The notes beneath the pieces are model-generated. The model ran no database searches. It was given only the letters and a program-made list of their open reading frames with translations, and had not been told where the DNA came from. The translations under genes and the position numbers were made by a program. 64,000 nucleotides of DNA from Chloroflexota bacterium. GTDB taxonomy: Bacteria > Chloroflexota > Anaerolineae > DTLA01. Below are positions 14,219 through 58,760 of this stretch, piece after piece. The first letter of the stretch is position 1; every line of letters starts with the position of its first letter. The stretch lies in NCBI GenBank assembly GCA_014874485.1, contig JADBJK010000011.1, forward strand, positions 144,328 to 208,327. Direction: 5' to 3'.

Positions 14219-14446
14219 TCACCGCAGAGACGCGGAGACCGCAGAGGTTCTATCGTTTTTCCCGCGTTCTCTGCGGCCTGCGCGGTGAGTTGACGCTCGC
14301 TCTCCACGTCGCCCGCCGAACTCAATACTGCCTCCCAGCGGGCCATAGAAGGCCTTGCCACCAAGCGGGTCATATCCCTCAAAGACGAAGGTTCGGTCAT
14401 CCCGACGGAACACGCAGATGGCGATGGGGCGGATCGCGTTCATCAC
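14219..14446 (-). pseudogene. N-terminal ~50-aa remnant of a Nudix hydrolase gene. Its 3' part is replaced by a family B mini-repeat at 14219-14292.
   Basis: 'MNAIRPIAICVFRRDDRTFVFEGYDPLGGKAFYGPLGGSIEFG' matches the Nudix strand before the catalytic helix. The GX5EX7REUXEEXGU box is absent. The ORF runs into the repeat 'caccgcagagacgcggagaccgcagag' and stops. Confidence 0.45.
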
Positions 14447-35894: not shown

Positions 35895-36010
35895 AATGCG
35901 GATGTCCTGTCATTGCGAGGAGCACAGCGACGAAGCAATATCGGTAGACCGTTATTCTGGAGCGCGGGGCGCTGAAGAATCTCGTCAACCGAGAGGCTTC
36001 GCTTCGCTCG
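35895..36010. repeat. Family A repeat, single copy
   Basis: 'gtcattgcgaggagcacagcgacgaagcaat...gaagaatctcgtcaaccgagaggcttcgcttcgctcgcaat'. Confidence 0.75.
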
Positions 36011-36151: not shown

Positions 36152-36652
36152 CTACGCCGTCGGCCCATCGGCGGGGCCTTCGGTAGTGGGCTTGGCCGTG
36201 AGGACTTTGCCCTCCGGCGTTACCACGTGGACTTCTGCGCCGGTGCCTTTGGCCACCGACTCGGCGAAGTGGAGCACCTCTTCGGGCGTGAACACGCGAT
36301 GGCGGGTTGGCGGCCCCGACGCGCCCAGCACCAGTGTGCTCGCGTGCGTCTGCACCAGGTAGTCGTGGATCGTCTCGCGCACGCGGCCGCACAGAACGAC
36401 GGGTTGCGCGTTGATTCCTCGGCGAGCGGCCCGCCTTTGGGCAACGGAAAGGAGGGATTGTCCCAGGCGCACCAACTCATCCCGCACGGCGTCCAGCAGG
36501 GGGGCCTTCAGGGAGCCCGCGAACTCGCAGTCGGCGACGTACAGGAAGACAAGCGCGGCCCCTCGCTCCTTTGCCAGTGCGATGGCATGTTCCTGCGTGC
36601 TTCGGCTCGCCTCACCGCCTCGGGTGGCACAGACAATCGGCCCAGGGTTCAT
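36152..36652 (-). CDS. Universal stress protein (UspA family)
   Basis: 'ALVFLYV...' and 'STLVLGASG' (ATP-binding G-x2-G-x9-G(S/T)). Start overlaps the antiporter stop (ATGA). Confidence 0.8.
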   Translation of the reverse strand: MNPGPIVCATRGGEASRSTQEHAIALAKERGAALVFLYVADCEFAGSLKAPLLDAVRDELVRLGQSLLSVAQRRAARRGINAQPVVLCGRVRETIHDYLVQTHASTLVLGASGPPTRHRVFTPEEVLHFAESVAKGTGAEVHVVTPEGKVLTAKPTTEGPADGPTA

Positions 36653-38220
36653 GACTCCTCCGCACCGCGCTCGTGCTCTTGAATCAGGCGGACCGCTTCC
36701 AGATGGTAATCCGCATCCCTCCGCAACTCATCGTACGTTGGCTCGGAGATGAGACCGCGCCTAAGGGCATCCTCCAGTGCCGCCCTCTCGGCCAGCAGGA
36801 TTTCCCGACGAGTCTGAAGTAGCATATCCCGCTCCAACTCCGCATGGGTGCGAAACAGGCGGCCTATCTCGCTCATGATCTGTTCTTTCTGCGCGCGGAA
36901 ATTGGATTGGAGGCCAGACCACATGTCCTCGGACAGAAGCCCTTCCTCCCGCAGTTGTGCCAGCCGCCTGAGGCCCGCCTGCAGGGCGAAGGACTGACCG
37001 ACGCGCCGCTCAAATTCCAGTTGGTGCTCGGACCTGTCGGTGATGCCCAGTGCCCGGATGAGGAACTGGATGGTCGTGCCCTGGGCCAGGAGCGTGAACA
37101 ACAGGACGCCGAAGGTCATCACCTGGAGCGTGCCGCGCGCGGCCAGGGTCAGGGGCAGGCTCAACGCCAGCGCAAGGCTGATGGCCCCCCTCAGCCCGCC
37201 CCAGAACAGGATGTGTCGCCACTGGAACGGGATGCGCGTGCCTCTGGACGCCACATCCGCCAGCCAGGAAAGCCCGTACACCACGACGGCCCGACTCAAC
37301 AGGACTGCTGCCACGGCAACGGCGATTGGCCTCGCGTTCGCCACAAGTTCGGAGATGTGGACGTTCAGCCCGATGAGCAGGAAGACGAGCGAGTTGGACA
37401 GAAACGCCAGGAACTCCCACAGGCTGAACAGCATGATGCGCGTGGTCGGCGACGCGCCCCGCAGGCCGACGTTGCCGCTGTACATCCCCGCCGCGACGAC
37501 TGCCAGCACGCCGCTCACCTGCAGCCGCTCCGCCGCCAGGTAGGCCCCGTAAGCCAGCAGGGCCGTTAGGGTGGTCTCTATGAGGCGGTCATCTATCCGC
37601 GCCATCAATTGCGCGACGAGCCAGCCCAGGGCAAACCCGATGGCCAGCCCCCCGATGGCAACCTCAAGGAATCGGAACACGCTTTCTACAAGTCGGAACT
37701 CACCCGAGACTGCGGCAAGCAGGGCAATCTGAAACACAACGATGGCCGTCCCGTCGTTGAACAGGCTTTCGCCCTCCACGGCCACGCCCAGGCGCTCGGG
37801 CACTCCCAGAGCGCGGAACAACGACACAACGGCAACAGGGTCGGTGGCGGAGATGAGCGCGCCGAAGACGACCGCAGGCCCCACGGGAAGGCCCGCGCCC
37901 AGCGCCACCACGCCCCCCACGAGGACGGCCGTAACGATCACCCCCGGGACGGCCAGGAATACGATGCTCGCCAGGCTGCTGCGCAGCATGCGAAAATCCA
38001 GGCGAAACGCGGCCTCAAATACCAGCGGCGGCACAAAGATGGCGAGAATCAACTCCGGCGTTACTTCTGCCCTCACGGGCCGCCAGGCGGCGATGAGCAG
38101 GCCCACCAGCACCAGGCTCACCGTGTAGGGCAGCCGCACGCGACGGATCATGATGGCAACCACCGTCGCCACCAGCATCAGGACAACGATGATGATCTCT
38201 GCGGAGATGAGTGAACTCAT
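36649..38220 (-). CDS. Na+/H+ (cation:proton) antiporter, CPA1/NhaP type, with C-terminal cytoplasmic regulatory domain
   Basis: 12-13 TM helices, a 'FNDGTAIVVF' motif and a C-terminal soluble ~150 aa. Confidence 0.85.
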   Translation of the reverse strand: MSSLISAEIIIVVLMLVATVVAIMIRRVRLPYTVSLVLVGLLIAAWRPVRAEVTPELILAIFVPPLVFEAAFRLDFRMLRSSLASIVFLAVPGVIVTAVLVGGVVALGAGLPVGPAVVFGALISATDPVAVVSLFRALGVPERLGVAVEGESLFNDGTAIVVFQIALLAAVSGEFRLVESVFRFLEVAIGGLAIGFALGWLVAQLMARIDDRLIETTLTALLAYGAYLAAERLQVSGVLAVVAAGMYSGNVGLRGASPTTRIMLFSLWEFLAFLSNSLVFLLIGLNVHISELVANARPIAVAVAAVLLSRAVVVYGLSWLADVASRGTRIPFQWRHILFWGGLRGAISLALALSLPLTLAARGTLQVMTFGVLLFTLLAQGTTIQFLIRALGITDRSEHQLEFERRVGQSFALQAGLRRLAQLREEGLLSEDMWSGLQSNFRAQKEQIMSEIGRLFRTHAELERDMLLQTRREILLAERAALEDALRRGLISEPTYDELRRDADYHLEAVRLIQEHERGAEES

Positions 38221-38485
38221 GGGGCCGCATCCATCCTTCAGGTGATGAGGTTATACTACCCGATGCCCGCGCCGTCAAGCGGAGAACAGCGGTTGGGGGA
38301 ATGTCCCGCTTCTCCCCAACCCCCTCGGTAGTTCCCCACACGGCGCATGAGGGCTTCCCCCCATCGCACGATGGACACAAGACCCGATAGCCTTCCGCAA
38401 ACGGATGCCGTATGCTTTAGGTGGAAGAACGGAGAGGCGTCGGCAGTTCGGCGCCCACATGGAACCGTGAACGAGGAGGTCGGCG

Positions 38486-38833
38486 ATGGAATCGGTACTT
38501 GCGGTAATCGGGCTGTTTGTGTTGCGCATTGGGGTGCCCATTGTGGTGATGGTGCTGCTGTCGTGGGGCGTGAGCGTGTACGTGCAGCGCGAGGAAGCGC
38601 GGGCACTGGAGGCCGAGAAGCGCGCCGCCCTTGCCCAGGCGGCAGCGGCGGCTGCCCCGTCGGCCTGCTGGGATGTGAAGGGGTGCAGCGACGAGGCGAA
38701 GGCCGATTGCCCCGCGGTGAAGCGGCCTGACCTGCCCTGCTGGCTTGCCAAGCAACTGGCCACCGGCAGGCTCTCCCCCGCGTGCGAGGCCTGCGCCATG
38801 TACCAGAAGAGCCTTGCCACGGCCCGGGCTTGA
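38486..38833 (+). CDS. Small membrane protein (115 aa) with one N-terminal TM helix and an 8-Cys soluble tail
   Basis: RBS GAGGAGG. 'VLRIGVPIVVMVLLS' is a TM helix. The tail carries 'CWDVKGC...DCPAVKRPDLPC...PACEAC'. Confidence 0.55.
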   Translation: MESVLAVIGLFVLRIGVPIVVMVLLSWGVSVYVQREEARALEAEKRAALAQAAAAAAPSACWDVKGCSDEAKADCPAVKRPDLPCWLAKQLATGRLSPACEACAMYQKSLATARA

Positions 38834-38880
38834 CCCGCCCACGCCCAGGCAACGGCTTGAACGAACGGAGGTGAAGGAAG

Positions 38881-39003
38881 ATGGCTACCGTGATGGATGA
38901 TCTGATCCTTGTGGGGATGATGGTCGTGCGGCTTGGCGTTCCCATCCTGATGATGGCGCTGTTGTCCGCGCTGCTGAATCGTTTGGTCCGCTCATCGGCG
39001 TAA
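38881..39003 (+). CDS. 40-aa membrane peptide, paralog of the preceding gene's TM segment. Not in the ORF track because it is below the track's length cutoff.
   Basis: RBS 'aggtgaagga'. 'MATVMDDLILVGMMVVRLGVPILMMALLSALLNRLVRSSA' shares the motif (V/L)(L/V)R(I/L)GVPI(V/L)(V/M)M(V/A)LLS with 38486..38833. Confidence 0.4.
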   Translation: MATVMDDLILVGMMVVRLGVPILMMALLSALLNRLVRSSA

Positions 39004-39076
39004 CCCGGCGCCGCGCCGTGAGCCTTTGCGCGGCAAAGGTTGCAATGCTCTACAATCTTGTACATGGAGGAATCGC

Positions 39077-40003
39077 ATGACAAACCGCTGTCATTCACAG
39101 CGCAGCCGAACCTTTGCGCACGGGTTGGTCATCGGCTGCATTCTCGCCCTGGTTGTCCTGATGGCATTCTCATCGGCAGCGCTGGCGCAGGGGCCTGCCC
39201 CGACGTACAAGGGGCCGGACCAGTGTGCCGCCTGCCATTCGGCCGAGGCGCGGGCCTGGCAGAACTCCACCCACGCAAAGGCCACGTCCGCGGTCCCGCC
39301 GGATGCCGACCGCGCCTGCCTGCGGTGCCACACCACCGCGTTTGACGCGGAGGAAGGCACGTGCGCGTACAAGGACGTGGAGTGCGAAGCCTGCCACGGG
39401 CCATATGTGGAAGGCCACCCGCGCAGCACCGTGATGAAACTGCCGGCCGACTCCACCGCGTGCCAGGAGTGCCACGCCAAGACCTACGAGCAGTGGCAGG
39501 CGACGCCCCACGCCGCGCTCAACGTTCAGTGCATCGGCTGCCACGACGCCCATTCGCAGAGTCTGCGGCTGCCCGCCGACCAACTGTGCACGTCGTGCCA
39601 CAGGGCCAAACTGGACTCGTTCCCTCACAGCGAGCACAACAGCCTGGGCATTGAGTGCACGGTCTGCCACGTGCCCCTGGACCACTCGGGCCAGGCCGGG
39701 GCGGTGCTGGCGAGCACCGGCGGGGGCAACGCGCCCAATCATACCTTTGCGCCGCCTGCCGAAGCGTGCGTCGGCTGCCATGCACAGGGCACCGTGCCCA
39801 TGACCGCTGGCGAAACCCAGCCCGATCCTGCGAAGGTGTTGGCCGACCAACTGGAGGCTGCGGAGCGCGAGAACACTTCCCTGCGCAACCTGGCCATCGT
39901 AACCCTGGGCGTGGGCCTGGGCATCGGCGGTGTGCTGGGTGTCGTGGCCATCCTGCTCATCGGATACATCGCGCAGAGGAGGGGCAAGCCATGGACGATC
40001 TAG
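39077..40003 (+). CDS. Membrane-anchored octaheme c-type cytochrome (8 CxxCH motifs)
   Basis: Motifs CAACH, CLRCH, CEACH, CQECH, CIGCH, CTSCH, CTVCH, CVGCH. N-terminal signal/TM and C-terminal TM 'LAIVTLGVGLGIGGVLGVVAILLIGYI'. RBS GGAGG. Confidence 0.85.
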   Translation: MTNRCHSQRSRTFAHGLVIGCILALVVLMAFSSAALAQGPAPTYKGPDQCAACHSAEARAWQNSTHAKATSAVPPDADRACLRCHTTAFDAEEGTCAYKDVECEACHGPYVEGHPRSTVMKLPADSTACQECHAKTYEQWQATPHAALNVQCIGCHDAHSQSLRLPADQLCTSCHRAKLDSFPHSEHNSLGIECTVCHVPLDHSGQAGAVLASTGGGNAPNHTFAPPAEACVGCHAQGTVPMTAGETQPDPAKVLADQLEAAERENTSLRNLAIVTLGVGLGIGGVLGVVAILLIGYIAQRRGKPWTI

Positions 40004-40923
40004 AGAAGGCCCGAATCTCCCGCCGCGACTTTCTGAAGAGCCTGGGGTTGGGCGCGGCTGCGGCTGCTGCGGCATCGGTTCTGCCTGGCGCTGCGGCGCA
40101 GGCTGCCGAGGAGACAGCAGGCGCGACCTGGGGGATGTTGGTGGACCTGACCCGCTGCACCGGCTGCAACTCCTGCGCGCTGGCCTGCAAGGAGGCCAAC
40201 GGCCTGCCGCAGATTCCCGGCAAGGTGCCCACCGCCCTGGACGCCGACACGTACACCTTCGTGGAGGCATTCCAGGTGGCGAACCTGCGCGGCGAGATCG
40301 TTACCCGCTACGTCAAGCGCCAGTGCATGCACTGCCTGGAGGCAGCGTGCGTCTCGGCCTGCCCGGCTGCCGCCATGCACAGCAGCGGCGAAGGCCCCAT
40401 CATCTACCGCGCCAGCCGCTGCCTGGGGTGCCGGTACTGCGAAGTGGCGTGTCCTTTTGGCATCCCGCGCTTCAACTGGGACAACAGCATCACGCCCAAG
40501 ATCAACAAGTGCTGGATGTGCTACGAGCGGCTCAAGGAAGGCGAGGAACCTGCCTGCGTGAGCGCCTGCCCCACCGGCGCGATCCGCTTCGGCCGGCGCG
40601 AGGACCTGCTGGTCCAGGCCCACGCCCGCATCGCCTCGCACCCCGACCGCTACATAGACCACGTGCTGGGCGAATCGGAGGTGGGCGGCACCTCGGTGCT
40701 GTACCTCTCCGACGTGCCGTTTGACCGCCTGGGCTTCCCGGCCAACTTGCCGCAGGTCGCCCCTCCCAAGCAGACCGAGAAGATTCTGTACAAACTCCCT
40801 TACGTGATCTTCGGGATGGCGGCGTTCATGACCGGCACGGCGCTGTACACCCACCGGAAGCCGGCAGCAACCGTGCCGGTGGAAGCCGACGCCGCAACCG
40901 AGACCCCGGACAAGGAGGCGTAG
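39991..40923 (+). CDS. Tat-exported 4Fe-4S ferredoxin-type subunit (NrfC/PsrB/HybA-like) with C-terminal TM anchor
   Basis: Twin-arginine 'SRRDFLKSLGLGAAAAAAAS'. Four Cys clusters: CTGCNSCALAC, CMHCLEAACVSACP, CLGCRYCEVACP, CVSACP. Start overlaps the cytochrome gene by 13 nt. Confidence 0.85.
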   Translation: MDDLEKARISRRDFLKSLGLGAAAAAAASVLPGAAAQAAEETAGATWGMLVDLTRCTGCNSCALACKEANGLPQIPGKVPTALDADTYTFVEAFQVANLRGEIVTRYVKRQCMHCLEAACVSACPAAAMHSSGEGPIIYRASRCLGCRYCEVACPFGIPRFNWDNSITPKINKCWMCYERLKEGEEPACVSACPTGAIRFGRREDLLVQAHARIASHPDRYIDHVLGESEVGGTSVLYLSDVPFDRLGFPANLPQVAPPKQTEKILYKLPYVIFGMAAFMTGTALYTHRKPAATVPVEADAATETPDKEA

Positions 40924-40926
40924 CCC

Positions 40927-42255
40927 ATGGGCGAGATCATCACCTATCCGGCATTCTGGATCGTGGCCGCGTTGAGCATCGGCATCCCGGTGGTGTTCCT
41001 CGCCGGGGCGCGGTTCTTGGCGGTGCGGCTGGCGGGCCGGTCGCAGGGCGCGGCCGCCGCTGCAGCCGAGGGCATCGTCATCACCGTGCCGCGGGTCCGC
41101 TCGCCCTGGAAGGTGCTGCGCGACCTGGTGCTCATCGGCGTGATGGCGACCGGCACCGCCATCATCCTGGTGCGGTTCATGTTCGGCCTGGGTGCGGTAA
41201 CCAACCTCAGCGACCGGTTCCCGCTGGGGTTCTGGATCGGGTTTGACGTGATGAGCGGCGTCGCGCTGGCCGCGGGTGGGTTCGTCATGGCGGCCACCGT
41301 GCACATCTTCCGCATTCACCGGTTTGAGCCGCTGGTGCGCCCCGCGATCCTCACGGCGTTCCTGGGCTACCTGCTGGTCATCGCCGCGCTCCTGGTGGAC
41401 CTGGGCCGGCCCTACAACGTCTGGCGGCCGCTGGTGCACTGGCAGTACCACTCGGTGCTCTGGGAGGTGGGCGTCTGCGTCGCCACGTACACGACGGTCC
41501 TGTTCTTTGAGTTCCTGCCCGTCATCCTGGAGCGCGTGAACCGGATAGAGGCCATCACAAAGCGCCTGCCGACCGTCGCCTTCTACCGCTGGCTCAAGAA
41601 GGTGTCCATCGTGTTCATCATCCTGGGCGTGGTGCTGTCCACGCTGCACCAGTCTTCGCTCGGCTCCCTGTGGGTCATCGTCCCGCAGAAACTGCACCCG
41701 CTGTGGTACTCGCTGTACCTACCAGTGTTCTTCTGGATGTCGGCGGTGGCGGTCGGGTTCGCCATGACCATCGTGGAGTCCAACCTGAGTTCCCGCGCCT
41801 TCAAGCGGGGGCTGGAGCAGCCCCTGCTGGCCGAACTGGGGCAGATCGCGTCGGTGGTGCTGGCGGTGTACCTGGTGGCGCGCGTCGCGGACATCACCGC
41901 ACGCGGCGCATGGCCTCGCGCCTTTGAGCCGACGCTCCAGGCCGCTTCGTTCTGGGTGGAGATGATCGCGGGCGTGGTTGTCCCCATCATCCTGTTCGCC
42001 GTGCCGTCGCTGCGCCGCAACCCCAAGGTTCTGTTTGCGGGCGCGTCGCTGGTCGTGGCCTTCGGCGTGGCGCTCAACCGCCTGAACGTGTCGTGGATCG
42101 GCCTGTTGTCGTACACGGGCAACATCTACAGCCCGTCGTGGATGGAACTGGTGGTAACCGTTACCCTCCTGGGGTTCGGCGTGCTGGCCTTCTACCTGGC
42201 GGCCAAGTACCTGCCCGTCTTCCCCGAAGAGGGCGCGCACAAGGCCCAAGAGTAG
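40927..42255 (+). CDS. NrfD/PsrC-family integral membrane quinol-interacting subunit
   Basis: 442 aa, ~10 TM helices, NrfD-like. RBS AAGGAGG. Confidence 0.8.
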   Translation: MGEIITYPAFWIVAALSIGIPVVFLAGARFLAVRLAGRSQGAAAAAAEGIVITVPRVRSPWKVLRDLVLIGVMATGTAIILVRFMFGLGAVTNLSDRFPLGFWIGFDVMSGVALAAGGFVMAATVHIFRIHRFEPLVRPAILTAFLGYLLVIAALLVDLGRPYNVWRPLVHWQYHSVLWEVGVCVATYTTVLFFEFLPVILERVNRIEAITKRLPTVAFYRWLKKVSIVFIILGVVLSTLHQSSLGSLWVIVPQKLHPLWYSLYLPVFFWMSAVAVGFAMTIVESNLSSRAFKRGLEQPLLAELGQIASVVLAVYLVARVADITARGAWPRAFEPTLQAASFWVEMIAGVVVPIILFAVPSLRRNPKVLFAGASLVVAFGVALNRLNVSWIGLLSYTGNIYSPSWMELVVTVTLLGFGVLAFYLAAKYLPVFPEEGAHKAQE

Positions 42256-42278
42256 CTGACCATAGGGAAAGTGTCCCG

Positions 42279-42394
42279 TTGTCATTGCGAGCGAAGCGAA
42301 GCAATCCCGCGTTCGGAGATTGCTTCGGGACGCTGCGCGCCCTCGCAATGACACACGATCAAGAATCGCCGTGGCAGAGTACTGGCCCCCGACG
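42279..42394. repeat. Family A repeat copy (upstream flank of the adaptor gene)
   Basis: 'gtcattgcgagcgaagcgaagcaatcccgcgttcggagattgcttcgggacgctgcgcgccctcgcaatgacacacgatcaagaatcgccgtggcagagtactggcc'. Confidence 0.8.
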
Positions 42395-42585
42395 GTCTCG
42401 CTTCTCTGCGGGCGGGCTGCCTTCCGTGGTAGCCCGCCCGTCTTGTCGTGATTTTACACTTTCATCACAAGCCTCTAATGTCCCTTTCATGTACCCGCGC
42501 GCGGCTCGTGATACAATAATGGCAGTTCGCGTCGCGGAATTGGGGCATTCGCCCAGGCCGCGCCAGCTTCACCATGGAGGGCGGT

Positions 42586-44007
42586 ATGCAGAAGAGAACC
42601 ATTTGGATTATCGTCCTGGTCGCCGTGCTCGTCGTGGCGGCCATCTTCTGGGTCAACCGCTGGAATGCGGCCCGCAAGGCCAGCGCCACCGCGCCCCAGA
42701 CGTCCACCGTGCAGCGGGGAAACCTGCAGGCCATCGTGGGGACGTCGGGCACCGTGCGCGCAGCCCAGTCCATGGACCTGACTTTCGGCGTTGCCGGCAC
42801 CGTCGTGGAGATTCTGGTGGCCGAGGGGGACCAGGTCAAAGCAGGGCAGCCGCTGGCCCGCCTGGACACCACGACGCTGGAGGCGCAGGTCGCCAGCGCG
42901 GAACTGTCGCTGCGCCTGGCCGAGAAGAACCTGGAGGACTTGAAGTCGCCGCCCACCGAAGTTGAACTCGCCCAGGCAGAAGCGGCCCTGGCCAGCGCCA
43001 AGGCGGCCTACGAAGCCGCCAAGGCCAAGCCGGTGGAGTGGCAAATCGCCCAGGCCGAGGCCGCGCTGGAAAAGGCACGCAAGACGCTGCAGGAGGCTCA
43101 GGCGGCCTACGATGCCGTCTCGTGGCGTCCGAATATCGCCATGCTCCCGCAGGCCACGCAACTGCAGCAGGCGACCGAAGCCTATCAGACCGCGCTGGAC
43201 AACTATCGCATCGCCATGGCCAGCGTGAGCGACGCCCCCATCAAGAGTGCCTACGCGCAACTCCTCCAGGCCCAGCAAGCCTATGACAAACTCAAGTCCG
43301 GCCCGACCGAGGAGGAACTCCTGAGCGCCGAAAATCAGGTAACCCAGGCGAAACTCGCGCTGGACACCGCGCGCAAGAATCTGGAAAGCGCCACCCTCAG
43401 GGCGCCCTTTGACGGCACCATCACCGCCGTCAACATTATCACGGGCCAGACGGTGGCCGCGAACACGGTCGCCATGTCCATCGCCGACCTGGATCATCTG
43501 CAAATCCAGGCCAACCTGCCCGAGGTGGACGCCGTGCAGGTGAAGGTGGGCCAGCGCGCCGAGATCACCCTGGACGCCCTCTCCACGCAGACGTTGAGCG
43601 GCCAGGTGAGCAAGATCGCGCTCATCGGCACCGTTACCCAGGGCGTGGTCAACTATCCGGTTACCATCAGCCTGGATTCCACCGACCTGCCGGTGAAGCC
43701 GGGCATGACCGCCAGCGTCAGCATCATCGTGGACGAGCGGAAGAACGTCCTCATGGTGCCCAACCGCGCCGTGCGCTCCCAGGGCGGCAACCGAGGGTAC
43801 TACGTGGAGGTCATGGTGGAGGGACAAATCGTACAGGTGCCGGTTACCATCGGCCTGAGCAACGGCTCCATGACCGAGATCACAAGCACCGGCCTGCGCG
43901 AAGGGGACACGGTCGTCGTGTCCAGCACCACAACGACCACCAGCAGCCGTATCCCGGGCGTCGGGGGTGGCTTCTTCGTAGGCGGCCCCGTGGGGCCTAG
44001 GGACTAG
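42586..44007 (+). CDS. Efflux periplasmic adaptor (HlyD/MacA-family membrane fusion protein)
   Basis: N-terminal TM, long coiled-coil (QxAE repeats), and a beta-barrel/MPD C-terminus 'GMTASVSI'. Confidence 0.85.
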   Translation: MQKRTIWIIVLVAVLVVAAIFWVNRWNAARKASATAPQTSTVQRGNLQAIVGTSGTVRAAQSMDLTFGVAGTVVEILVAEGDQVKAGQPLARLDTTTLEAQVASAELSLRLAEKNLEDLKSPPTEVELAQAEAALASAKAAYEAAKAKPVEWQIAQAEAALEKARKTLQEAQAAYDAVSWRPNIAMLPQATQLQQATEAYQTALDNYRIAMASVSDAPIKSAYAQLLQAQQAYDKLKSGPTEEELLSAENQVTQAKLALDTARKNLESATLRAPFDGTITAVNIITGQTVAANTVAMSIADLDHLQIQANLPEVDAVQVKVGQRAEITLDALSTQTLSGQVSKIALIGTVTQGVVNYPVTISLDSTDLPVKPGMTASVSIIVDERKNVLMVPNRAVRSQGGNRGYYVEVMVEGQIVQVPVTIGLSNGSMTEITSTGLREGDTVVVSSTTTTTSSRIPGVGGGFFVGGPVGPRD

Positions 44008-44027
44008 AAGTTGACCACAGAAAAAAA

Positions 44028-44140
44028 GTGCCCGCTGTCATTGCGAGCGAAGCGAAGCAATCCCTCGCTCGGAGATTGCTTCGGGCGCCGCGCCCTCGCA
44101 ATGACACACCATCAAGAATCCCTGTGGCAGAGTACTAGCC
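44028..44140. repeat. Family A repeat copy (downstream flank of the adaptor gene), ~90% identical to 42279-42394
   Basis: 'gtcattgcgagcgaagcgaagcaatccctcgctcggagattgcttcgggcgccgcgccctcgcaatgacacaccatcaagaatccctgtggcagagtactagcc'. Confidence 0.8.
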
Positions 44141-44180
44141 CGTGTCTGGCAGTGCTCGGGAGGCACGAGGAGAAAGCCCT

Positions 44181-44873
44181 ATGGCGCTAATTGAGATAGA
44201 GAACGTTACGAAGGTTTACCGCATGGGCGAGGTGGAGGTGCACGCCCTGCGCGGCGTCTCGCTGGCGATTGAGAAGGGCGAGATGGTCGCCATCATGGGG
44301 CCGTCCGGCTCGGGCAAGTCCACGCTGATGAATATCCTGGGGTGTCTGGACAAGCCCACGTCGGGCGTGTACCGGCTGGACGGCGTGGACGTGGGCAGCC
44401 TGGACGACGACGCCCTGGCGCGAATCCGCAACCGCAAGATCGGGTTCGTGTTCCAGACGTTCAACCTGCTGCGGCGCACGTCGGCGCTGGCCAACGTGGA
44501 ACTGCCGATGATCTACTCGGGCAACGGCAACCGGCGCGAGCGGGCGCTGGCGCTGTTGGCGTCGGTCGGGCTGGCCGAGCGCGTTCACCACCAGCCGACG
44601 CAACTGTCGGGTGGCGAGCAGCAGCGCGTGGCGATTGCGCGGGCGCTGGTCAACGAGCCGTCCATCATCCTGGCCGACGAGCCGACGGGGAACCTGGACA
44701 GCAAGGCGGGCGCCGAAATCATGGCCATCTTCCACCGCCTGCACCGCGAGCAGGGGCAGACCGTCGTCCTGGTAACCCACGATCCACTCATCGCGGCCCA
44801 GGCCCAGCGCATCATCCGCCTGCGCGACGGCCTTATCGTGGATGGCGACGGGGCGCAGGAGGAGGCAGCATGA
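44181..44873 (+). CDS. ABC transporter ATP-binding protein, MacB/LolD type
   Basis: Walker A 'GPSGSGKST', signature '[15 protein letters not shown]', Walker B '[11 protein letters not shown]'. Confidence 0.9.
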
Positions 44874-46105
44874 ACGTTCAAGAGAGCCTTCGGACGGCGA
44901 TCACAAGCCTTGCGGCCAACAAACTGCGGTCGTTTCTGACCATGCTGGGCATCGTCATCGGCGTGGCCGCCGTCATCGCCATGCTGTCCATTGGGCGGGG
45001 CGCGCAGGCAGCCATCACCAGCCAGATCACCAGCATGGGCACCAACCTGCTGTTCGTCAGGCCGGGCGCGGCCAGCCAGGGCGGCGTGCGCATGGCGCAG
45101 GGGTCGGCGGCCACGCTGACCTACGAGGACGCGCTGGCGCTGGCCGCGGCGCCGTCGGTGGCGGCCGTCGCGCCCGAAGCCTCTACGTTTGGCCAGGTGG
45201 TGTATCTGTCCAACAACATCAACACGCAGATCACCGGCGTTACGCCCGAATACGAGCAGGTACGCAACATGCCGGTGGAGTACGGCTCGTTCATCACGGC
45301 GCAGCACGTCGCCGCGCGCAGCCCGGTGGCGGTCATCGGCGCGAATGTGGCGGCGGAACTGTTCAACGGCGACGACCCGCTGGACAAGACCATCCGCATC
45401 AACGGGCAGAACTTCCGGGTCATCGGCATCCTCAAGGCCAAGGGCGGCACCGGCTTCGGCGTGGTGGACGACCGCATCCTGATTCCGCTGACCACGCTGC
45501 AGAGCCGGTTGGCGTCCAGCGGGCGGTTCCGCGGCGGGAACACCATCCAGACCATCAACGTCCAGGTGGTCAGTGAGAAGGTAACCGACCAGGCCGTTGA
45601 GGAGATTAGCGCCATCCTGCGCGAGCGCCACAACATCCTGTACGAGGACGACTTCACCATCACGTCGCAGCAGGATACGATAGAGGCGGCCAACCAGATC
45701 ACGGGCATCCTCACGGTGTTCCTGGGCGGCATCGCGGCCATCTCGCTCCTCGTGGGCGGCATCGGCATCATGAACATCATGCTGGTGTCGGTTACGGAGC
45801 GCACCCGCGAGATCGGCATCCGCAAGGCCGTCGGCGCGCGGAAACGCGACATCCTGGCCCAGTTCCTGACCGAGGCCACCCTGCTCAGCGTGGTCGGGGG
45901 GCTGGTAGGCATCCTGGTGGGCTACGGCATCTCGCGGTTCATCACCGGCATCAACTTGGGCAACACGCAAATCAGCGCCGTGGTGAGCGCCGACTCGGTG
46001 CTCCTGGCGACGCTGTTCTCGGTGGCGGTGGGGCTGTTCTTCGGGATTTTCCCGGCCCAGCGCGCCGCCGACTTGAATCCGATTGAGGCGTTGAGGTACG
46101 AGTAG
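44870..46105 (+). CDS. ABC transporter permease, MacB/FtsX family
   Basis: N-terminal TM, large periplasmic domain, and C-terminal FtsX 4-TM domain '[27 protein letters not shown]'. ATGA overlap with the ATPase gene. Confidence 0.9.
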
Positions 46106-46212: not shown

Positions 46213-46659
46213 ATGAAGAAGAACATCCTGTGGATTGCGTTGGCAGTCGTGCTCATCGTGGGCGCGGGCGTGGGTGGCTACTTCTACGGCGTGGAGCAGG
46301 GCAAGGCCCAGGCCGCCAGCGTCCGCGAGCGGTTCATCGCCGAGCGGTTCGGCACCGCCCAGCCGAACGGGCAGGCCGCGCCAGGCCAGTTCTTCGGCGG
46401 GCAGGGCGCAACCGGCCGCACGGGCATGGGTGGCCGCGGCGCGACCGGCACCATCAAGGAGATTCAGGGCAACACCATCCTGGTCAGCACCGCCGAGCAG
46501 GAACTGAAGGTGCAGGTTACCGCGGACACGCGCATCACCCTGACCACGCAGGGCAGCATCTCGGACCTCAAAGTCGGCGACCGCATCATCATCGGCGGCC
46601 AGACCCAGGGCAACACCATGACCGCGACGCAGATTCAGATCATCCCGAACATCCCGTGA
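46213..46659 (+). CDS. Small exported protein, DUF5666-like
   Basis: Signal/TM 'MKKNILWIALAVVLIVGAGVGG', Gly-rich linker, and 'GTIKEIQGNTILVSTAEQELKVQVTADTRITLTTQGSISDLKVGDRIIIGG'. RBS GAGGAGG. Confidence 0.6.
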   Translation: MKKNILWIALAVVLIVGAGVGGYFYGVEQGKAQAASVRERFIAERFGTAQPNGQAAPGQFFGGQGATGRTGMGGRGATGTIKEIQGNTILVSTAEQELKVQVTADTRITLTTQGSISDLKVGDRIIIGGQTQGNTMTATQIQIIPNIP

Positions 46660-46744: not shown

Positions 46745-46890
46745 GATTATCCGCTGTCATTGCGAGCGAAGCATCTCGGTCGCCGAGATTCTTCGGCGCT
46801 GCGCGCCTCAGTAGGGACAATTCATGAATTGTCCCTACGGGCGTTGCGCTCCTCGCAATGACATGCCATCAAGAATCGCCACGGTGAAGC
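46745..46890. repeat. Family A repeat copy carrying the 22-bp palindrome
   Basis: 'gtcattgcgagcgaagcatctcggtcgccgagattcttcggcgctgcgcgcctcagtagggacaattcatgaattgtccctacggg...ctcgcaatgacatgcc'. Confidence 0.8.
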
Positions 46891-46891
46891 A

Positions 46892-47545
46892 CTACGGCTC
46901 AATCAGCCCCTTGCGGATGGCGTATTTGGTCAGTTCAATGCGGTTGTGCAGGTTGAGTTTCTCCATGATGTTGGAACGATGGCGCTCCACAGTCTTGGTG
47001 CTGATGTGCAGCGCCAGGGCAATCTCCTGGGTGGTGTACCCTTCGGCGATAAGGGTGAGCACTTCGCGCTCGCGCTCGGTCAGGCCGTCGTAGGTCTCCT
47101 GCTCACCCCCTTCGCGCACGCGCCGCATGTAGTCTTCCACCAGCGAGCGCGCCACGGTGGGGTACAGGTACACGCCGCCGCTCTGCACCGCGCGCACGGC
47201 CTCGGCCAGGGCCATGGGCGCGGCCTTCTTGGGCACATACCCCGACGCCCCCGCGCTCAAAATCTCAAAGAAGTACTGCTCGTTGTCGTACATGCTGAGC
47301 ACCAGGATGTTGCACTCCGGGTGCTTCTTCTTGATCTGCCGCGTCGCCTCAAACCCGTCCATATCGGGCATGACGATGTCCATCACCACGACGTCGGGCT
47401 TCAGTTCGTCGGCCAGCCGCACGGCCTCCCGACCGTCCCCCGCCTCGCCCACGATTTGCAATTCGGGGTCGGTCTCCAGCAGCATGCGCACGCCCGCACG
47501 GACGATGGCGTGATCATCCACCAACAGGATGCGTATCGGGCTCAT
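46892..47545 (-). CDS. NarL/LuxR-family response regulator
   Basis: 'ILLVDDHAIVRAG...VVVMDIVMPDMDG' is the receiver domain. C-terminal HTH 'GYTTQEIALALHISTKTVERHRSNIMEKL'. Confidence 0.9.
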   Translation of the reverse strand: MSPIRILLVDDHAIVRAGVRMLLETDPELQIVGEAGDGREAVRLADELKPDVVVMDIVMPDMDGFEATRQIKKKHPECNILVLSMYDNEQYFFEILSAGASGYVPKKAAPMALAEAVRAVQSGGVYLYPTVARSLVEDYMRRVREGGEQETYDGLTEREREVLTLIAEGYTTQEIALALHISTKTVERHRSNIMEKLNLHNRIELTKYAIRKGLIEP

Positions 47546-49505
47546 GGCCCACCTCCTGAATCAGGGGGACTTCCACGGTGATGCGCGTGCCGGCGCCCGG
47601 ACGCGAGTCAATCGCCATGCTCCCGCCCAGGCCCTCGGCGCGCTCCTTCATGCCGAGAAGCCCCCACGCCGGCCGCGGCGACAGCGGGTCCATCGCCGCC
47701 TGGGGATCAAACCCCGCGCCGTCGTCCTCCACCACCAACAGCACCCGCCCCGGCTCCGCCCTCAACGAGATGCGCACGTGCTTGGCGTTGGCATGCCGAA
47801 TGATGTTCTTCACCGATTCCTGCGCAATTCGGAAGAGTTCCACCTCCAGGTGGGGCGGCAGGCGGGTCTTTCCCAACGACAGTTTCAACTCCACCGACGG
47901 CAGGCGGTCCTTGTTGGATTCCACCAGCCAGCGCAACGCGGCGACCAGCCCCAGGTCGTCCAGCAACGTGGGGCGCAGGTCGGCGATGAGGCGGTCAATC
48001 TCGTCCATCGCCTGCAAGCCCACCTGGAGCAAGTCCTTGAGCCGCTGCTCGGCCAGGTACGGATCCGAGGCGACGGTGGCCTGCAACGCGCCCAAGCCGG
48101 TAACCAGGGCGGTGAGCGCCTGGCCGGTTTCGTCGTGCAGTTCGCGGGCGATGCGGCGGCGCTCCTCCTCCTGCGCGGCGACGACCCGTTCCAGCAGCCT
48201 GCGGAGCATCTGCTCGCGGCGCTGGACCTCGCGGTAGAGCCACGCTTTCTCCATGCCGACGGCGACCTGATTGGCCAACGCCTGGGCCTGCTGCAGTTCG
48301 CGGTCGGTGAAACGCCCCTCCTCGCTCTGGTTCGCCAGGCTCATGACGCCCAGCACCCAGTTCTCGGAGCGCAAGGGGACGCACAGCACGCTGGGCAATT
48401 CGTCGCTCATGGTCGCCGCGCCGCGTCCCGACCGCATGACCTGCTCGGCCAATTCCAGCGCGCGGGAACAGGGGGTGTCAATGCCGGTGCATACCTTGGT
48501 CTCCAGTCTGCCGGTGGCGGGGTTCGTTACCAGGATGCACCCGCACTCCACGCCGTCAAACAGGTCCACGATGCGCTCAATGGCCTCCTTGGCCAGCGTG
48601 TCCATATCCAGGCGCGACGCCACGATGCGGGTTGTTTCCAGCAGGGCCGAGAGTTCCCGCGCCAGGCGCGACAGTTGGGCGGTGTGCTGTTCGGCCTCGC
48701 GGCGGCGGGCGGCTTCGGCTTCCAGCGCGGCCATCTGGGCACGCAGCAGCATCTGGCGTTCGGCCTGCTCGGCGACGCCCAAAGCCCGAACGATGCCGCA
48801 GGTCTCGGCCGCCAGGGCCGCCGCCCGGAAGAACTGCACGGGGATGCCGAACGCGCCGGCGAACCACACGTCGTTGATCACTGAGGCTGGCCAAAGAACG
48901 CTGCGCGGGCCTGTGATGCTGTCAAAGACGGCGAACCAGATGGCGGCCCAGGCCGCGGTCAGCATGTGGTTCCCGAAGGCGCTCTGCAACTTGGAGGCCA
49001 TCTCCCGCCGCTGGAGCCAGAAGGCGTAGGCGGTCAGCGCGCCGGCGGGCAGCCCCAGCGTGTACCGCGCCCACACATCCGCGGCCCGCGTCCAGGTGGC
49101 CACGTCGGCGATAAGCAGGCGCATGACGACCGCCCCCGCCAGCCATACCCCCGCCAGCGCGGGCAGTACCCACCGCCGCCAGTCCCGCCGAGGGTCCACC
49201 CGCTGCCAGATGATGAGCCCGTAGATGACCAGGAGCAGGTACGCCGCCACGAGGAGGACCAGTTCGGACACGCCCGTGCCCTGGCGGGCCGGCAGGCCAT
49301 GCAACTGGCTATCCAGTACGCCGAGGTCCATCCACTTCTTGATGGCGCGCAGGAACGCCGCCGCCGCGATGAGCGCCAACGGCCGGCGATAGGGGTAGTC
49401 GTGGGCGCGGCCCATCTGCAGCGCGACCGACAGGCCCAGCGCGAAGAACGCCAGGCCCGACAGAAAGTACGCCAGAACCTCGCTCTGCAATTCCACCGTA
49501 GCCAT
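47514..49505 (-). CDS. Sensor histidine kinase (HisKA_3/NarX-LiaS type) with multi-TM sensor and GAF domain
   Basis: 'ELHDETGQALTAL' H-box and 'VEDDGAGFDP' HATPase motif. ATG 49505 has RBS GGAAGG. 32-nt overlap with the response-regulator gene. Confidence 0.85.
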   Translation of the reverse strand: MATVELQSEVLAYFLSGLAFFALGLSVALQMGRAHDYPYRRPLALIAAAAFLRAIKKWMDLGVLDSQLHGLPARQGTGVSELVLLVAAYLLLVIYGLIIWQRVDPRRDWRRWVLPALAGVWLAGAVVMRLLIADVATWTRAADVWARYTLGLPAGALTAYAFWLQRREMASKLQSAFGNHMLTAAWAAIWFAVFDSITGPRSVLWPASVINDVWFAGAFGIPVQFFRAAALAAETCGIVRALGVAEQAERQMLLRAQMAALEAEAARRREAEQHTAQLSRLARELSALLETTRIVASRLDMDTLAKEAIERIVDLFDGVECGCILVTNPATGRLETKVCTGIDTPCSRALELAEQVMRSGRGAATMSDELPSVLCVPLRSENWVLGVMSLANQSEEGRFTDRELQQAQALANQVAVGMEKAWLYREVQRREQMLRRLLERVVAAQEEERRRIARELHDETGQALTALVTGLGALQATVASDPYLAEQRLKDLLQVGLQAMDEIDRLIADLRPTLLDDLGLVAALRWLVESNKDRLPSVELKLSLGKTRLPPHLEVELFRIAQESVKNIIRHANAKHVRISLRAEPGRVLLVVEDDGAGFDPQAAMDPLSPRPAWGLLGMKERAEGLGGSMAIDSRPGAGTRITVEVPLIQEVGHEPDTHPVGG

Positions 49506-49602
49506 CCTTCCGGTTTTGTGCGGCGTGCCATTTGTGCGCCGCCGCACAAGCAGTATAGCAGGGGTTTGCCGACGGCGCAACACGCGCAGTTGTCCACGGG
49601 TG

Positions 49603-49892: not shown

Positions 49893-50172
49893 AACCGAAT
49901 ACGCGAAGCAACGGCGATGATGGAAACGAGTAGTCGGGCGGAGCCGCCCAGCGAGTCCGGGCCTGGTGCAAGCCGGATGCGCGAACCCCGACGAAAATCC
50001 TTCCGGAGCCGCCAACCGAACGGAGGCAACTCCCAGTAGACTTGGCCGGGGCGCGCCCGTTACAGCGGCGGGGGTATGAACACGTACCCACAGAGCGGAC
50101 AGGCTTGCCTGTCAACCGGGGTGGTACCGCGGGAGTCAGACTCTCGTCCCTATGGGGCGGGAGTTTTCTTTA
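49893..50172 (+). promoter_or_regulatory. T-box riboswitch leader for ileS (tRNA-Ile sensing), with terminator-like hairpin and U-tract
   Basis: Canonical T-box sequence 'GGGTGGTACCGCGG' at 50118-50133. A GA/K-turn-like 'gatgatgg...cgagtag' lies near the 5' end of the leader. Hairpin 'cgtccc-tat-ggggcg' plus 'ggagttttcttt' at 50145-50172. Confidence 0.7.
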
Positions 50173-53200: not shown

Positions 53201-53423
53201 CCAGCGCAAGGACGCAGGCTTCCGGATTGAGGACCACATTCGGGTCTTCTACCGCTGCGGCGCAGAGTTGCAGGCAGTCTTCGCCGAGTTCGGCGACTAC
53301 ATCCGGCAGGAAACGCTGGCCGACGAAATGACAGAGGGCGACGCTCCGCAGGGCGCTCACCTGCAGGAGCACAATCTGGACGGCGAACCCCTGGTCTTGG
53401 GGTTGCTCAGAATAGAAGGGTAG
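50280..53423 (+). CDS. ileS: Isoleucyl-tRNA synthetase (type 2, ~1047 aa)
   Basis: 'PTANGRPHAGH' HIGH motif, 'KMSKHVGN' KMSKS motif, CP1 editing domain. RBS GGAGGA. Confidence 0.95.
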   Translation: MFREVTPQVNFPKMEEGILEFWRAHNVFAKTLELRKDAPRWVFYEGPPTANGRPHAGHVLPRVLKDLFPRYRTMKGYYVLRKGGWDTQGLPVELEVEKELKINSKAEIEAYGVEAFNQKCRESVWKYVKEWEQLTERIAFWVDLENAYITYKTEYIESLWWILKQLWDKGLIYQGYKVVPYCARCGTSLSSHEVSQGYRDVQDPSVFVKFPLRDEPGTYFLVWTTTPWTLPGNVALAVHPHVEYVLVQQGDDKLILAKALLDYALRGEYQVLRSLKAKELIGKHYRPLYTFLPVDKDYAYVVGAEFVNTEEGTGIVHIAPAFGADDLDVGKEYNLPVLMTVDLRGRFVNEVTPWRGMFVKDADPLITDDLKARGLLYRAGKYEHSYPFCWRCHQPLLYYAKTTWYIETTKVRDQMLATNEQINWYPEHIKHGRFGNWLETNVDWALGRERYWGTPLPIWECQDCGHRDCIGSLAELSEKAGRDLSGLDPHRPFVDAVVLKCPNCGGQMRRIPEVADAWFDSGSMPVAQWHYPFENQDVFKEQFPADFICEAIDQTRGWFYTLHAVATMLFNSPAYKNCLVTEFGTDEKGAKMSKHVGNVVDPWPILNEQGADALRWYTYSVAAPWYPRRFGNELVRETLRRFLLTVWNTYSFFVTYARIDNFNPMEHHMPVSKRSELDRWVLSELNLLVERVDTSLDKYDVTGATRAIEAFVDGLSNWYVRRSRRRFWKSGEDTDKVAAYLTLYECLVTLAKLMAPFTPFLSEEMYQNLVRSVDSGAPLSVHLCDFPVADRAAIDNALVSDVQLVRQVVSLGHAARNAANLKVRQPLAKVVVKPRDEAGRAVVERMAAVITDELNVKALEVVAQADDLVRYEIGLLPNVLGKKHGALFPKLRAAVAALPAADLARELQAGKSVRVPVDGQEIELLPEEAEVRVHSAEGFSAAEENGLIVAVSTALTEALVREGLAREVVRRIQTQRKDAGFRIEDHIRVFYRCGAELQAVFAEFGDYIRQETLADEMTEGDAPQGAHLQEHNLDGEPLVLGLLRIEG

Positions 53424-56794: not shown

Positions 56795-56846
56795 TTTGTC
56801 CCTCCAGATTGTGGTCCCCCATCGCGCGGATGGGGGGATGATGTGC

Positions 56847-58514: not shown

Positions 58515-58760
58515 GGCACTCCTCCTTGTTCCTGTAACGCAAAACCCGACCGGCGGGTTCGCATTCGGCGTTGGGGGTAGGATAGCACCTCCCGCGACGG
58601 GCGTCAAGGGCGTCGTCGTGGTGCCGAACTCGCCGGCATGGCAGAAAACCACAGGGCGCGTCGCACCTGTGCTGCGCCTTTGCGGTCGCTGCAGCCCTCA
58701 ACCGCTTGACTTGCAGGCGGGTGTGCGCTATGATTGGGCAACGCGAACGTAGGAGGCCGC

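Follow-up and report, generated by a model that had tools for sequence, protein, structure and literature searches.

A stretch of 64,000 nucleotides (nt) from a Chloroflexota bacterium of the class Anaerolineae (contig JADBJK010000011.1, positions 144,328 to 208,327), hereafter called the window, carries five co-oriented genes on its forward strand at positions 38486-42255. Comparisons of their products with known protein families point, with a probability of about 0.65, to a noncatalytic complex of the HybAB/HmcBC/NhcBC lineage through which the menaquinone pool would exchange electrons with multiheme cytochromes at the outer face of the cytoplasmic membrane. A regulated menaquinol:multiheme-cytochrome oxidoreductase, comparable to Nhc or NetBCD, seems to be the best reading of this module. 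In sediments, digesters, and activated sludge, Anaerolineae belong to the most abundant bacteria, and this mostly uncultured class is rich in multiheme cytochromes. No description was found in the literature of the membrane step that joins their quinone pool to these cytochromes, and the module is a concrete, lineage-wide, and testable candidate for that step. The five genes are as follows:

38486-38833, forward strand: small1, 115 amino acids (aa), one transmembrane (TM) helix, six cysteines
38881-39003, forward strand: small2, 40 aa, one TM helix, no cysteine
39077-40003, forward strand: octaheme c-type cytochrome, 308 aa, Sec signal, eight CxxCH motifs, C-terminal TM anchor
39991-40923, forward strand: 4x[4Fe-4S] iron-sulfur (FeS) protein of the HybA/HmcB/FdnH type, exported by twin-arginine translocation (TAT), 310 aa, C-terminal membrane helix
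40927-42255, forward strand: NrfD-like subunit of the HybB/HmcC type, 442 aa, PF03916, 11 predicted TM helices

The assignment of this module to a known lineage is carried by its FeS and NrfD-like subunits. The FeS protein opens with an SRRDFLK twin-arginine signal (Pfam TAT_signal and TIGR01409, both above cutoff) and contains 16 cysteines arranged in four ferredoxin-type motifs (Pfam Fer4_11, 1.2e-22). When scored with NCBIfam hidden Markov models (HMMs), it reaches 257 bits for HmcB and 231 for HybA, with NrfC, QrcC, DsrO, TtrB, and DmsB far lower. Its alignment with HybA of E. coli K-12 runs end to end at 32% identity and includes the C-terminal membrane helix, and its closest relative of solved structure is FdnH (1kqf_B, 2e-37). 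The NrfD-like protein matches PF03916 at 1.9e-20 (74 bits, against a cutoff of 25.8) and belongs to the HybB-like branch of this NrfD superfamily, as it scores 313 bits for HmcC, 308 for HybB, and 152 for QrcD, and aligns over its full length with E. coli K-12 HybB at 32% identity (371 aa). No solved relative of this subunit detectable by sequence was found. Residues R138, Y148, E195, and H241 of the NrfD-like protein align with R89, Y99, E148, and H184 of HybB, which have been assigned to a proton half-channel and whose replacement impairs hydrogen oxidation (PMC8076601). The initial annotation had labeled the module NrfBCD/PsrBC-like, a label that is better sharpened to HybAB/HmcBC/NhcBC-like.

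The cytochrome has exactly eight CxxCH motifs across approximately 185 residues and no CxxCK, in agreement with the octaheme count first reported. Its start is better placed at ATG 39077, which is accompanied by a Shine-Dalgarno sequence, than at TTG 39026. The Sec signal peptide ends with ALA-QG, and the C-terminal membrane anchor that had been proposed is recovered as a predicted TM helix at residues 277-295, which is Gly-rich and resembles a Gly-zipper anchor placed after a helical stalk. In alignments of 19 and 121 homologues, M120 and seven histidines outside the heme-binding motifs (66, 114, 145, 159, 184, 187, and 222) are either invariant or conserved in at least 90% of the sequences. 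Because this full set of conserved distal ligands would be sufficient for eight six-coordinate hemes, the protein is probably an electron-transfer wire, with no obvious open catalytic heme, rather than a catalytic heme protein. Matches in Pfam and NCBIfam are to generic multiheme models only (Cytochrome_C554, C7, and paired CXXCH), plus decaheme-family fragments, and phmmer searches return a weak resemblance to cytochrome c554 as well as to octaheme nitrite reductase (N-terminal part). A fold search with the AlphaFold2 (AF2) model of the cytochrome, which has a predicted local distance difference test (pLDDT) score of 77, gave MtrA, OcwA, the C. ferrireducens S-layer cytochrome, NrfA, and c554 as the best matches, all of them weak and local. 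Judged from this model, the cytochrome would fall in the c554/NrfA/MtrA/OcwA heme-packing superfamily and in nothing more specific.

The arrangement of the genes matches an earlier description of the three large ones as a tight, partly overlapping operon. The start of the FeS gene overlaps the cytochrome gene by 13 nt, and the NrfD gene begins 3 nt past the FeS stop codon. A GGAGG-like Shine-Dalgarno sequence is located 5-12 nt upstream of the start of all five genes, and the same five open reading frames (ORFs) were predicted by an independent gene caller on a Logan contig; the exact proteins were found on two short Logan contigs only. The absence of a nearby catalytic partner, which the initial annotation had also pointed out, was borne out by Pfam scans of approximately 50 ORFs across the 64 kb, in which NrfA, molybdopterin enzymes, hydrogenases, and other terminal reductases were not detected. 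No sigma-70 promoters or intrinsic terminators exceeding shuffled expectation were detected between positions 38100 and 42700, and Rfam has no match inside the module. A perfect 7-bp hairpin (CCTTTGC-gcg-GCAAAGG, 39023-39039) is located 20 nt past the small2 stop and 38 nt before the cytochrome start, with no T-run after it. It may act in processing or stability and so determine how strongly the small proteins are expressed relative to the cytochrome.

The cytochrome has 167 detectable relatives, all of them unannotated, and the named ones derive from metagenome-assembled genomes (MAGs) of Anaerolineae/Anaerolineales. Its family is almost confined to MAGs of the Anaerolineae, Caldilineales, and Ardenticatenales. 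A scan of one genome per GTDB species yielded 79 loci, which come from Chloroflexota MAGs of the class Anaerolineae (Anaerolineales, Caldilineales, and Ardenticatenales) except for a few weak matches at no more than 26% identity, and no cultured isolate is among them. ORFs were called in the collected loci, which were then searched with HMMs and with phmmer queries made from the window proteins. In each of the 64 loci where at least 2.4 kb of sequence remains, FeS and NrfD genes come after the cytochrome gene, and the exact order of the window (small1-small2-cytochrome-FeS-NrfD) is present in many loci. The initial annotation had considered that a reductase gene might co-occur with the module in related genomes; among 76 genome loci, no NrfA or other catalytic cytochrome adjoins it.

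Other multiheme cytochromes are encoded within 10 kb of the module in 22 of these 76 loci. They include a 742-aa decaheme protein, which in one locus (L005) is a lipoprotein by its signal sequence, NapC/NirT-fused proteins of 626-765 aa, and a CbcL-like fusion of cytochrome b561 with a multiheme domain. In addition, an octaheme paralogue lacking the anchor (cyt2) is present in 13 loci. Such neighborhoods make the role in periplasmic or extracellular electron transfer that had been suggested for the module plausible, short of proof. A close relative whose cytochrome is 81% identical (L009) keeps the layout of the window, but its small1 gene is inverted and the genes for Usp and the Na/H exchanger are absent.

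Two small proteins encoded upstream of the cytochrome distinguish this module. The first, small1, has a hydrophobic helix at residues 7-25, followed by a Cys-rich tail with the pattern CW..K.C-x7-C-x9-CW-x14-C..C. An alignment of the family reveals invariant residues F11, L13, R14, and P18 in the helix, which define an LRxGxP motif (F..LR.G.P), and invariant residues C61, P81, C85, W86, A88, C100, and C103 in the tail, where the other two cysteines are variable. Its companion, small2, has a helix with the VVRLGVP version of this motif and carries no Cys domain. The initial description of a Cys-rich single-pass protein with a Cys-less paralogue is upheld, since the small1 family HMM gives small2 a score of 30 bits and the two proteins have six cysteines and none, respectively.

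The small1 proteins constitute a new family. No Pfam or NCBIfam family matches small1, and a profile search of 1.84 billion representatives recovered 471 clusters at E<=1e-3, 258 of them below 1e-10, with proteins of approximately 100-225 aa that share the same layout. AF2 predicts a helix over residues 2-55, with pLDDT values above 90 for residues 1-40 and of 57-67 for the Cys domain. Comparison of small1 with PDB sequences returned transmembrane noise only (e.g., rhodopsin helices) and no relative. The presence of two CW motifs and six cysteines resembles the two-CW domain (NF045718), but this candidate was rejected when the window protein gave no match and only one of 23 family members gave any, at an E-value of 0.96. 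Sub-threshold matches to PF09527 (ATPase_gene1) in six of the 23 members, the best with an E-value of 0.0056, are whole-protein scores and were treated as a hint. Proteins of PF09527 carry a conserved membrane Arg. If the match lies in the TM helix, small1 could likewise place a buried Arg facing a carboxylate or an ion path, which is a hint only.

Codon comparisons were made with two relatives (L009 and L008), and relative to L009 the small1 gene has 23 synonymous and 11 nonsynonymous changes, which indicates purifying selection. The small2 gene has 10 synonymous and 13 nonsynonymous changes, with conservative substitutions and weaker selection. Full-length small1 is present in 52 of the 76 genome loci; 37 occurrences immediately precede the gene of a family cytochrome (cyt1 or cyt2) and eight directly follow NrfD, two of the latter being upstream of a family cytochrome as well. 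A small2-like homologue of 40-50 aa directly precedes the cytochrome gene in at least 53 of the 64 loci, down to 33% cytochrome identity, and small2 is probably a micro-subunit.

Fusions point to the partner of these helices. One copy of the LRxGxP helix is fused to the N terminus in 19 of 68 NrfD proteins from genome loci (E-values of 1e-4 to 1e-7). In a class of loci lacking the cytochrome, described below, the NrfD proteins are 517-556 aa long and have one or two N-terminal LRxGxP copies (domain E-values of 1e-7 to 1e-13). The NrfD-like protein of the window has an extra N-terminal TM helix at residues 9-27 (AALSIGIPVVFLAG), where its relatives carry the fused LRxGxP helix. These fusions argue that the free helices also associate with NrfD, and thus small1 and small2 are probably subunits that dock on it. 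HybB-type proteins start in the cytoplasm, and therefore a helix fused in front of them should run from outside to inside. The distribution of charges in the small proteins fits the positive-inside rule with the same orientation as the fusions. Given a helix with its N terminus outside and its C terminus inside, the Cys domain of small1 is predicted to be cytoplasmic, where it could serve in structural metal binding, redox sensing, or signaling to a kinase.

The position of small1 is not rigidly fixed relative to the larger genes. In L009 (9157-9507), as well as in L089 and L090, small1 alone is inverted and is divergent from small2-cytochrome-FeS-NrfD, with the Usp and Na/H-exchanger genes missing as well, and it follows that small1 need not be co-transcribed with the module. 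A search from the small1 side, which covered 80 metagenome loci, uncovered a third class of loci in which small1 is directly upstream of FeS-NrfD with no cytochrome, followed by genes for a HisKA_3 kinase and a NarL-type regulator. This class comprises L107, L118, L120, L124, L126, L130, L161, L165, L168, and L169. The gene order is a short LRxGxP peptide, small1, FeS, NrfD with one or two fused helices, a dCache/HAMP/HisKA_3 kinase, and the NarL regulator. Two of these loci (L168 and L169) have a second module downstream that consists of FeS, NrfD (449 aa), and a GAF-HisKA_3 kinase and is preceded by a protein of approximately 315 aa that is beta-propeller-like or unannotated.

Kinase and regulator genes also accompany the complete module, and a conserved DNA element precedes small1. 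The corresponding features of the window are as follows:

38347-38403, forward strand: operator-like site, the best weight-matrix match in the window
46892-47545, reverse strand: NarL/LuxR-type response regulator (Pfam Response_reg and GerE), a syntenic partner
47514-49583, reverse strand: HisKA_3 histidine kinase, 689 aa (Pfam GAF, HisKA_3, and HATPase_c), a syntenic partner

All-against-all clustering of flanking ORFs identified a NarL/LuxR-type regulator of approximately 220 aa in 46 of about 78 loci and a HisKA_3 kinase of approximately 690 aa in 43, and both clusters include the window genes. The regulator typically appears in the order HK-RR-small1 (histidine kinase, response regulator, small1). 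The kinase gene lies either approximately 3.6 kb upstream on the same strand, in the order histidine kinase, response regulator (HK-RR), small1, small2, cytochrome, FeS, and NrfD, or 5-6 kb downstream in convergent orientation. In the window, the two-component genes are approximately 4.6 kb downstream of the module on the reverse strand. The module and the two-component genes are adjacent in most relatives, whereas in the window a MacAB-like exporter (42574-46105; HlyD adaptor, ABC ATPase, and MacB_PCD/FtsX permease) and a DUF5666 gene (46213-46659) intervene. In L009, an extra insertion of approximately 3 kb separates the ATPase and permease genes of this exporter. The N-terminal region of the window kinase is hydrophobic over approximately 290 aa, with three segments over the hydropathy threshold and approximately six to seven by eye, and its first 294 aa have no Pfam match.

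Enriched k-mers in the 250 nt preceding small1 genes point to a composite motif, CCCCAT-N5-6-AAAATGGGG-N2-ATT-N-CCCnATnGA, which can be abbreviated as CCCCAT..AAATGGGG..CCCnATnGA and is located upstream of the small genes. A regular expression (regex) covering the 3' two-thirds of the motif was searched against 3.46 Mb on both strands of all fetched loci and yielded 61 matches. Of these, 42 are within 330 nt upstream of full-length small1, 10 precede a short LRxGxP gene, seven precede a family cytochrome, and two are elsewhere. A weight matrix was then derived from 58 instances, all in other genomes and none in the window or its close relatives. Its top match in the 64 kb, both strands considered, is at 38347-38403 on the forward strand, with a score of 11.5 compared to -0.3 for the runner-up (mean -60.6, standard deviation 13.4). 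The core of this site, CCCCCCATCGCACGATGGACACAAGACCCGATAG, is at 38357-38391, approximately 95 nt upstream of the small1 ATG. The inverted half-sites of the operator appear to suit binding by a NarL/GerE-type regulator, and the co-inherited NarL-type protein is the presumed binder. The operon is most likely controlled from the operator upstream of small1 by the HisKA_3 kinase and the NarL-type regulator.

These features suggest a path for electrons through a complex that the five proteins would form. Menaquinol would be oxidized at the HybB-type NrfD subunit, whose proton-pathway residues are conserved, and the electrons would travel along the four [4Fe-4S] clusters that the TAT-exported HybA/HmcB-type protein carries. 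From there they would reach the membrane-anchored octaheme cytochrome, a presumed wire to other multiheme cytochromes, soluble or at the surface, whose genes lie elsewhere; the final acceptor might be extracellular. The helices of small2 and small1 would dock on NrfD, with the N terminus outside and the C terminus inside, and small1 would hold a Cys4(-6) domain, presumably metal binding, on the cytoplasmic face. An outward role is favored because of the cytochrome-rich neighborhoods in relatives and because of electrode and iron respiration by Ardenticatena. Extracellular electron transfer, both anodic and cathodic, has been demonstrated in cultured Ardenticatena (PMC5808234).

Several findings weigh against this interpretation. 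The nearest characterized relatives (hydrogenase-2, Hmc, and Nhc) mainly reduce quinone (PMC8076601), and the direction of electron flow is not readable from sequence. All family HMM scores are below the equivalog cutoffs, and therefore function can be transferred at the superfamily level only. No additional multiheme cytochrome is encoded in the window, where no second ORF has two or more CxxCH motifs, or in the syntenic contig of the close relative L009. The loci with small1-FeS-NrfD alone indicate that the cytochrome is not a universal partner. Moreover, the strict regex does not recognize the degenerate operator copy of the window, and the match of the window NrfD to the small1 HMM through its N-terminal helix is marginal (E 0.03).

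Some of this evidence bears on alternative explanations for the module. The same complex might run in reverse, as an Hmc/Nhc-like cytochrome:menaquinone oxidoreductase that feeds outside electrons into the quinone pool. The donors could be H2 or formate by way of soluble cytochromes, Fe(II), cathodes, or a syntrophic partner. That the closest families (HmcBC, NhcBC, and HybAB) are mainly quinone reductases (PMC8076601) agrees with this possibility, as does the cathodic transfer that Ardenticatena performs in addition to anodic transfer (PMC5808234), and sequence data do not fix the direction. However, no hydrogenase, formate dehydrogenase, or cytochrome c3 gene was found in approximately 150 loci, and the neighboring cytochromes in relatives are of outward-transfer types (NapC/NirT-fused, CbcL-like, and the decaheme lipoprotein). 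Reversed flow is considered unlikely, although it deserves to be taken seriously. There is a slim chance that the module instead supplies electrons, in the manner of NrfBCD, to one dedicated soluble reductase (NrfA, octaheme nitrite reductase, or sulfite reductase) encoded elsewhere in the genome. The order of cytochrome, FeS, and NrfD genes does resemble nrfBCD, and the cytochrome bears a weak, local similarity to c554 and to octaheme nitrite reductase (N-terminal parts). Yet the FeS protein scores 100 bits with the NrfC model (TIGR03149), whose cutoff is 378, the NrfD subunit is of the HybB/HmcC type, and the cytochrome, with its eight CxxCH motifs, lack of CxxCK, and own membrane anchor, is not a pentaheme NrfB. 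Membership in Nrf itself was rejected on these scores and motif counts and on the lack of NrfA. The absence of catalytic cytochromes next to the module in the 76 genome loci also speaks against a dedicated reductase.

An even slimmer chance is given to the idea that FeS, NrfD, and small1 form the core of a sensor of the redox state of the quinone pool or of the proton-motive state, which would report to the kinase via the Cys domain of small1, with the cytochrome as an optional part. In support of a sensor, small1, FeS-NrfD, and the HisKA_3 kinase stay linked even where the cytochrome is missing, small1 is always found beside the HK-RR pair, and the kinase of the window type has no large periplasmic sensor domain. 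But a full machine with four [4Fe-4S] clusters, NrfD, and proton-pathway residues would be costly for sensing alone. The operator before small1 points to the module as the target of regulation, and contact between small1 and the kinase has no direct support. Finally, the initial annotation had allowed that the genes might be pieces of an Alternative Complex III (ACIII), namely ActA, an ActB fragment, and ActC, with the remaining subunits outside the window. This explanation is almost certainly wrong, as the resemblance (a multiheme cytochrome, an FeS protein, and an NrfD-like protein) is superficial. ActB is a fusion of approximately 1000 aa, whereas the FeS protein is complete in 310 aa from its TAT signal to its C-terminal helix and has Fer4 and TAT matches only, with no molybdopterin-like domain. 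ActB chains match it by their FeS part alone, and far worse (6f0k_B, 1.4e-20; 6btm_B, 7e-15) than FdnH does. The 64 kb contain a single NrfD-like gene, which matches HmcC and HybB, no second one as expected for the pair ActC and ActF, and no ActD or monoheme ActE, and the same compact trio is found amid unrelated genes in 64 loci.

A more speculative proposal concerns the small proteins, and the odds are clearly against it in its complete form. The LRxGxP helix might represent an unrecognized class of single-TM micro-subunits of NrfD quinone modules, which occur free, duplicated, or fused to NrfD. The Cys4 domain of small1 (Fe-S or Zn), tethered on the cytoplasmic side, might then couple the redox or proton-translocation state of the complex to the co-inherited HisKA_3 kinase and NarL regulator in a three-component circuit, and the buried invariant Arg of the helix may participate in chemistry of ions or quinones within the complex. 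If this proposal is true, this feedback circuit would control the entry point of extracellular respiration in Anaerolineae.

The remainder of the window is largely occupied by genes for housekeeping and transport, as recognized by Pfam, including those for SMC, IleRS, ArgG, L25, glycosyltransferases, the MacAB-like exporter, a flavodiiron protein, and others. Genes for Usp and a Na/H exchanger (36152-38220) flank the module on one side, and those for HlyD and a MacB-type ABC transporter flank it on the other. A REP-like intergenic repeat of approximately 115 nt (GTCATTGCGAGCGAAGCGAAGCAATC...) is present at 42275-42388 and 44031-44141, with partial copies at 46846-46898 and 35901-35929. One full copy begins 20 nt past the NrfD stop and the other follows the HlyD-like gene, whereas the partial copies are beside the response-regulator gene and near 35.9 kb. 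Translation of this repeat generates spurious 'SLRAKRSNP...LAMT' ORFs in the ORF list. A T-box leader (49908-50154; 102 bits, above the gathering score) is located upstream of the isoleucyl-tRNA synthetase gene (50280-53423), which is an ordinary arrangement, and a tRNA gene is at 4908-4981. The flavodiiron-type protein (14446-15624, reverse strand) combines an ODP/metallo-beta-lactamase domain with a flavodoxin domain and fits an oxygen-exposed anaerobe or a microaerophile. Three ORFs have no Pfam match at 1e-5 and a coding-like GC content at third codon positions: 56847-58652 (reverse strand, 601 aa), 5747-7030 (forward strand, 427 aa), and 12312-13415 (reverse strand, 367 aa). The first of these adjoins a gene for a bacterial arrestin-like (Arrestin_N/C) protein at 55916-57019.

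There are several reasons why this module merits attention. It offers handles for experiments in the form of a defined operator, a dedicated kinase and regulator, and two unannotated small subunits. The conservation of the small proteins as likely subunits, the two-component system as a part of the unit, and the conserved operator before small1 had all escaped the initial annotation. Relatives of the module are automatically annotated as 'Ni/Fe-hydrogenase cytochrome b subunit' or 'hypothetical'. Since no hydrogenase is encoded in the window or in the related loci, the former label is misleading, and the present assignment corrects this recurrent database entry where a hydrogenase is lacking. 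Furthermore, the fusions of the LRxGxP helix to NrfD provide a clear case of microproteins that are probably real subunits and that are usually ignored by gene callers and annotation pipelines.

Comparison with known systems places the module among complexes that share an NrfD-like subunit and a four-cluster ferredoxin module, as do ACIII, Qrc, Nrf, and Psr (PMC8076601). The subunits that define those four systems (the ActB fusion, ActD, ActE, and ActF; QrcB; NrfA; and the molybdopterin protein PsrA) are absent from the window. Membership in Qrc was rejected because the scores for QrcC (98, with a cutoff of 400) and QrcD (152, with a cutoff of 570) are low and a QrcB-like gene is lacking; QrcA, moreover, is a hexaheme cytochrome. 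Psr was likewise rejected on the basis of HMM cutoffs and the missing PsrA. A closer likeness is seen with hydrogenase-2 of E. coli, whose HybA and HybB are approximately 32% identical to the window proteins over their full length, with the four HybB residues as well as the TAT signal and C-terminal helix of HybA retained. However, HybO and HybC are absent from the window and the related loci, and the cytochrome is in their place. The scores for HybA (231, with a cutoff of 263) and HybB (308, with a cutoff of 450), along with the lack of hydrogenase genes, led to rejection of hydrogenase-2 membership.

Nhc and Hmc of sulfate reducers (Desulfovibrio) resemble the module in having a multiheme cytochrome, a periplasmic protein with four [4Fe-4S] clusters and a membrane helix, and an NrfD-like quinone subunit. 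None of the three has a catalytic subunit, and HmcB and HmcC are the top NCBIfam matches. NhcABCD consists of a multiheme cytochrome, an FeS protein, an NrfD-like protein with 10 TM helices, and a small membrane subunit, and NhcC has not been reported in Chloroflexi (PMC8076601). The window proteins nonetheless score below the equivalog cutoffs (257 compared to 420 for HmcB, and 313 compared to 550 for HmcC), which indicates relatedness at the superfamily level only. The cytochromes of Hmc and Nhc are composed of c3-like repeats (16 hemes in HmcA and nine in NhcA), whereas that of the window is a c554/NrfB/MtrA-like octaheme protein with its own anchor. Models of HmcA and NhcA gave no match to the window cytochrome, and TmcA matched at an E-value of 0.01 only. 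Hmc and Nhc include a small hydrophobic subunit (HmcD or NhcD), for which the 40-aa TM protein small2 may be a counterpart; small2 is encoded upstream of the cytochrome and has no NCBIfam or Pfam match. The small subunits of the window belong to the new LRxGxP family. The window module also lacks a cytochrome b or CCG subunit and has its own two-component system and operator.

With regard to function, a parallel might be NetBCD of Aeromonas hydrophila, which serves extracellular electron transfer as the quinol dehydrogenase of the inner membrane (PMC8805035, PMC9012536). By its published description, NetBCD likewise combines a cytochrome, an FeS protein, and an NrfD-like protein with no catalytic subunit. 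It differs from the window module in being described as Nrf-derived, in belonging to another lineage, in its cytochrome family, and with respect to the extra small subunits and the regulation. SirCD and the Cbc complexes of Geobacter are grouped with NetBCD. No description of the present gene set in Chloroflexi or Anaerolineae, of the small-protein family, or of the operator was found in the literature, nor was one found for the two-CW domain. Overall, the module is a Chloroflexi-specific form of a known quinone-cytochrome module that adds two new single-helix subunits and comes with a two-component regulator and an operator of its own.

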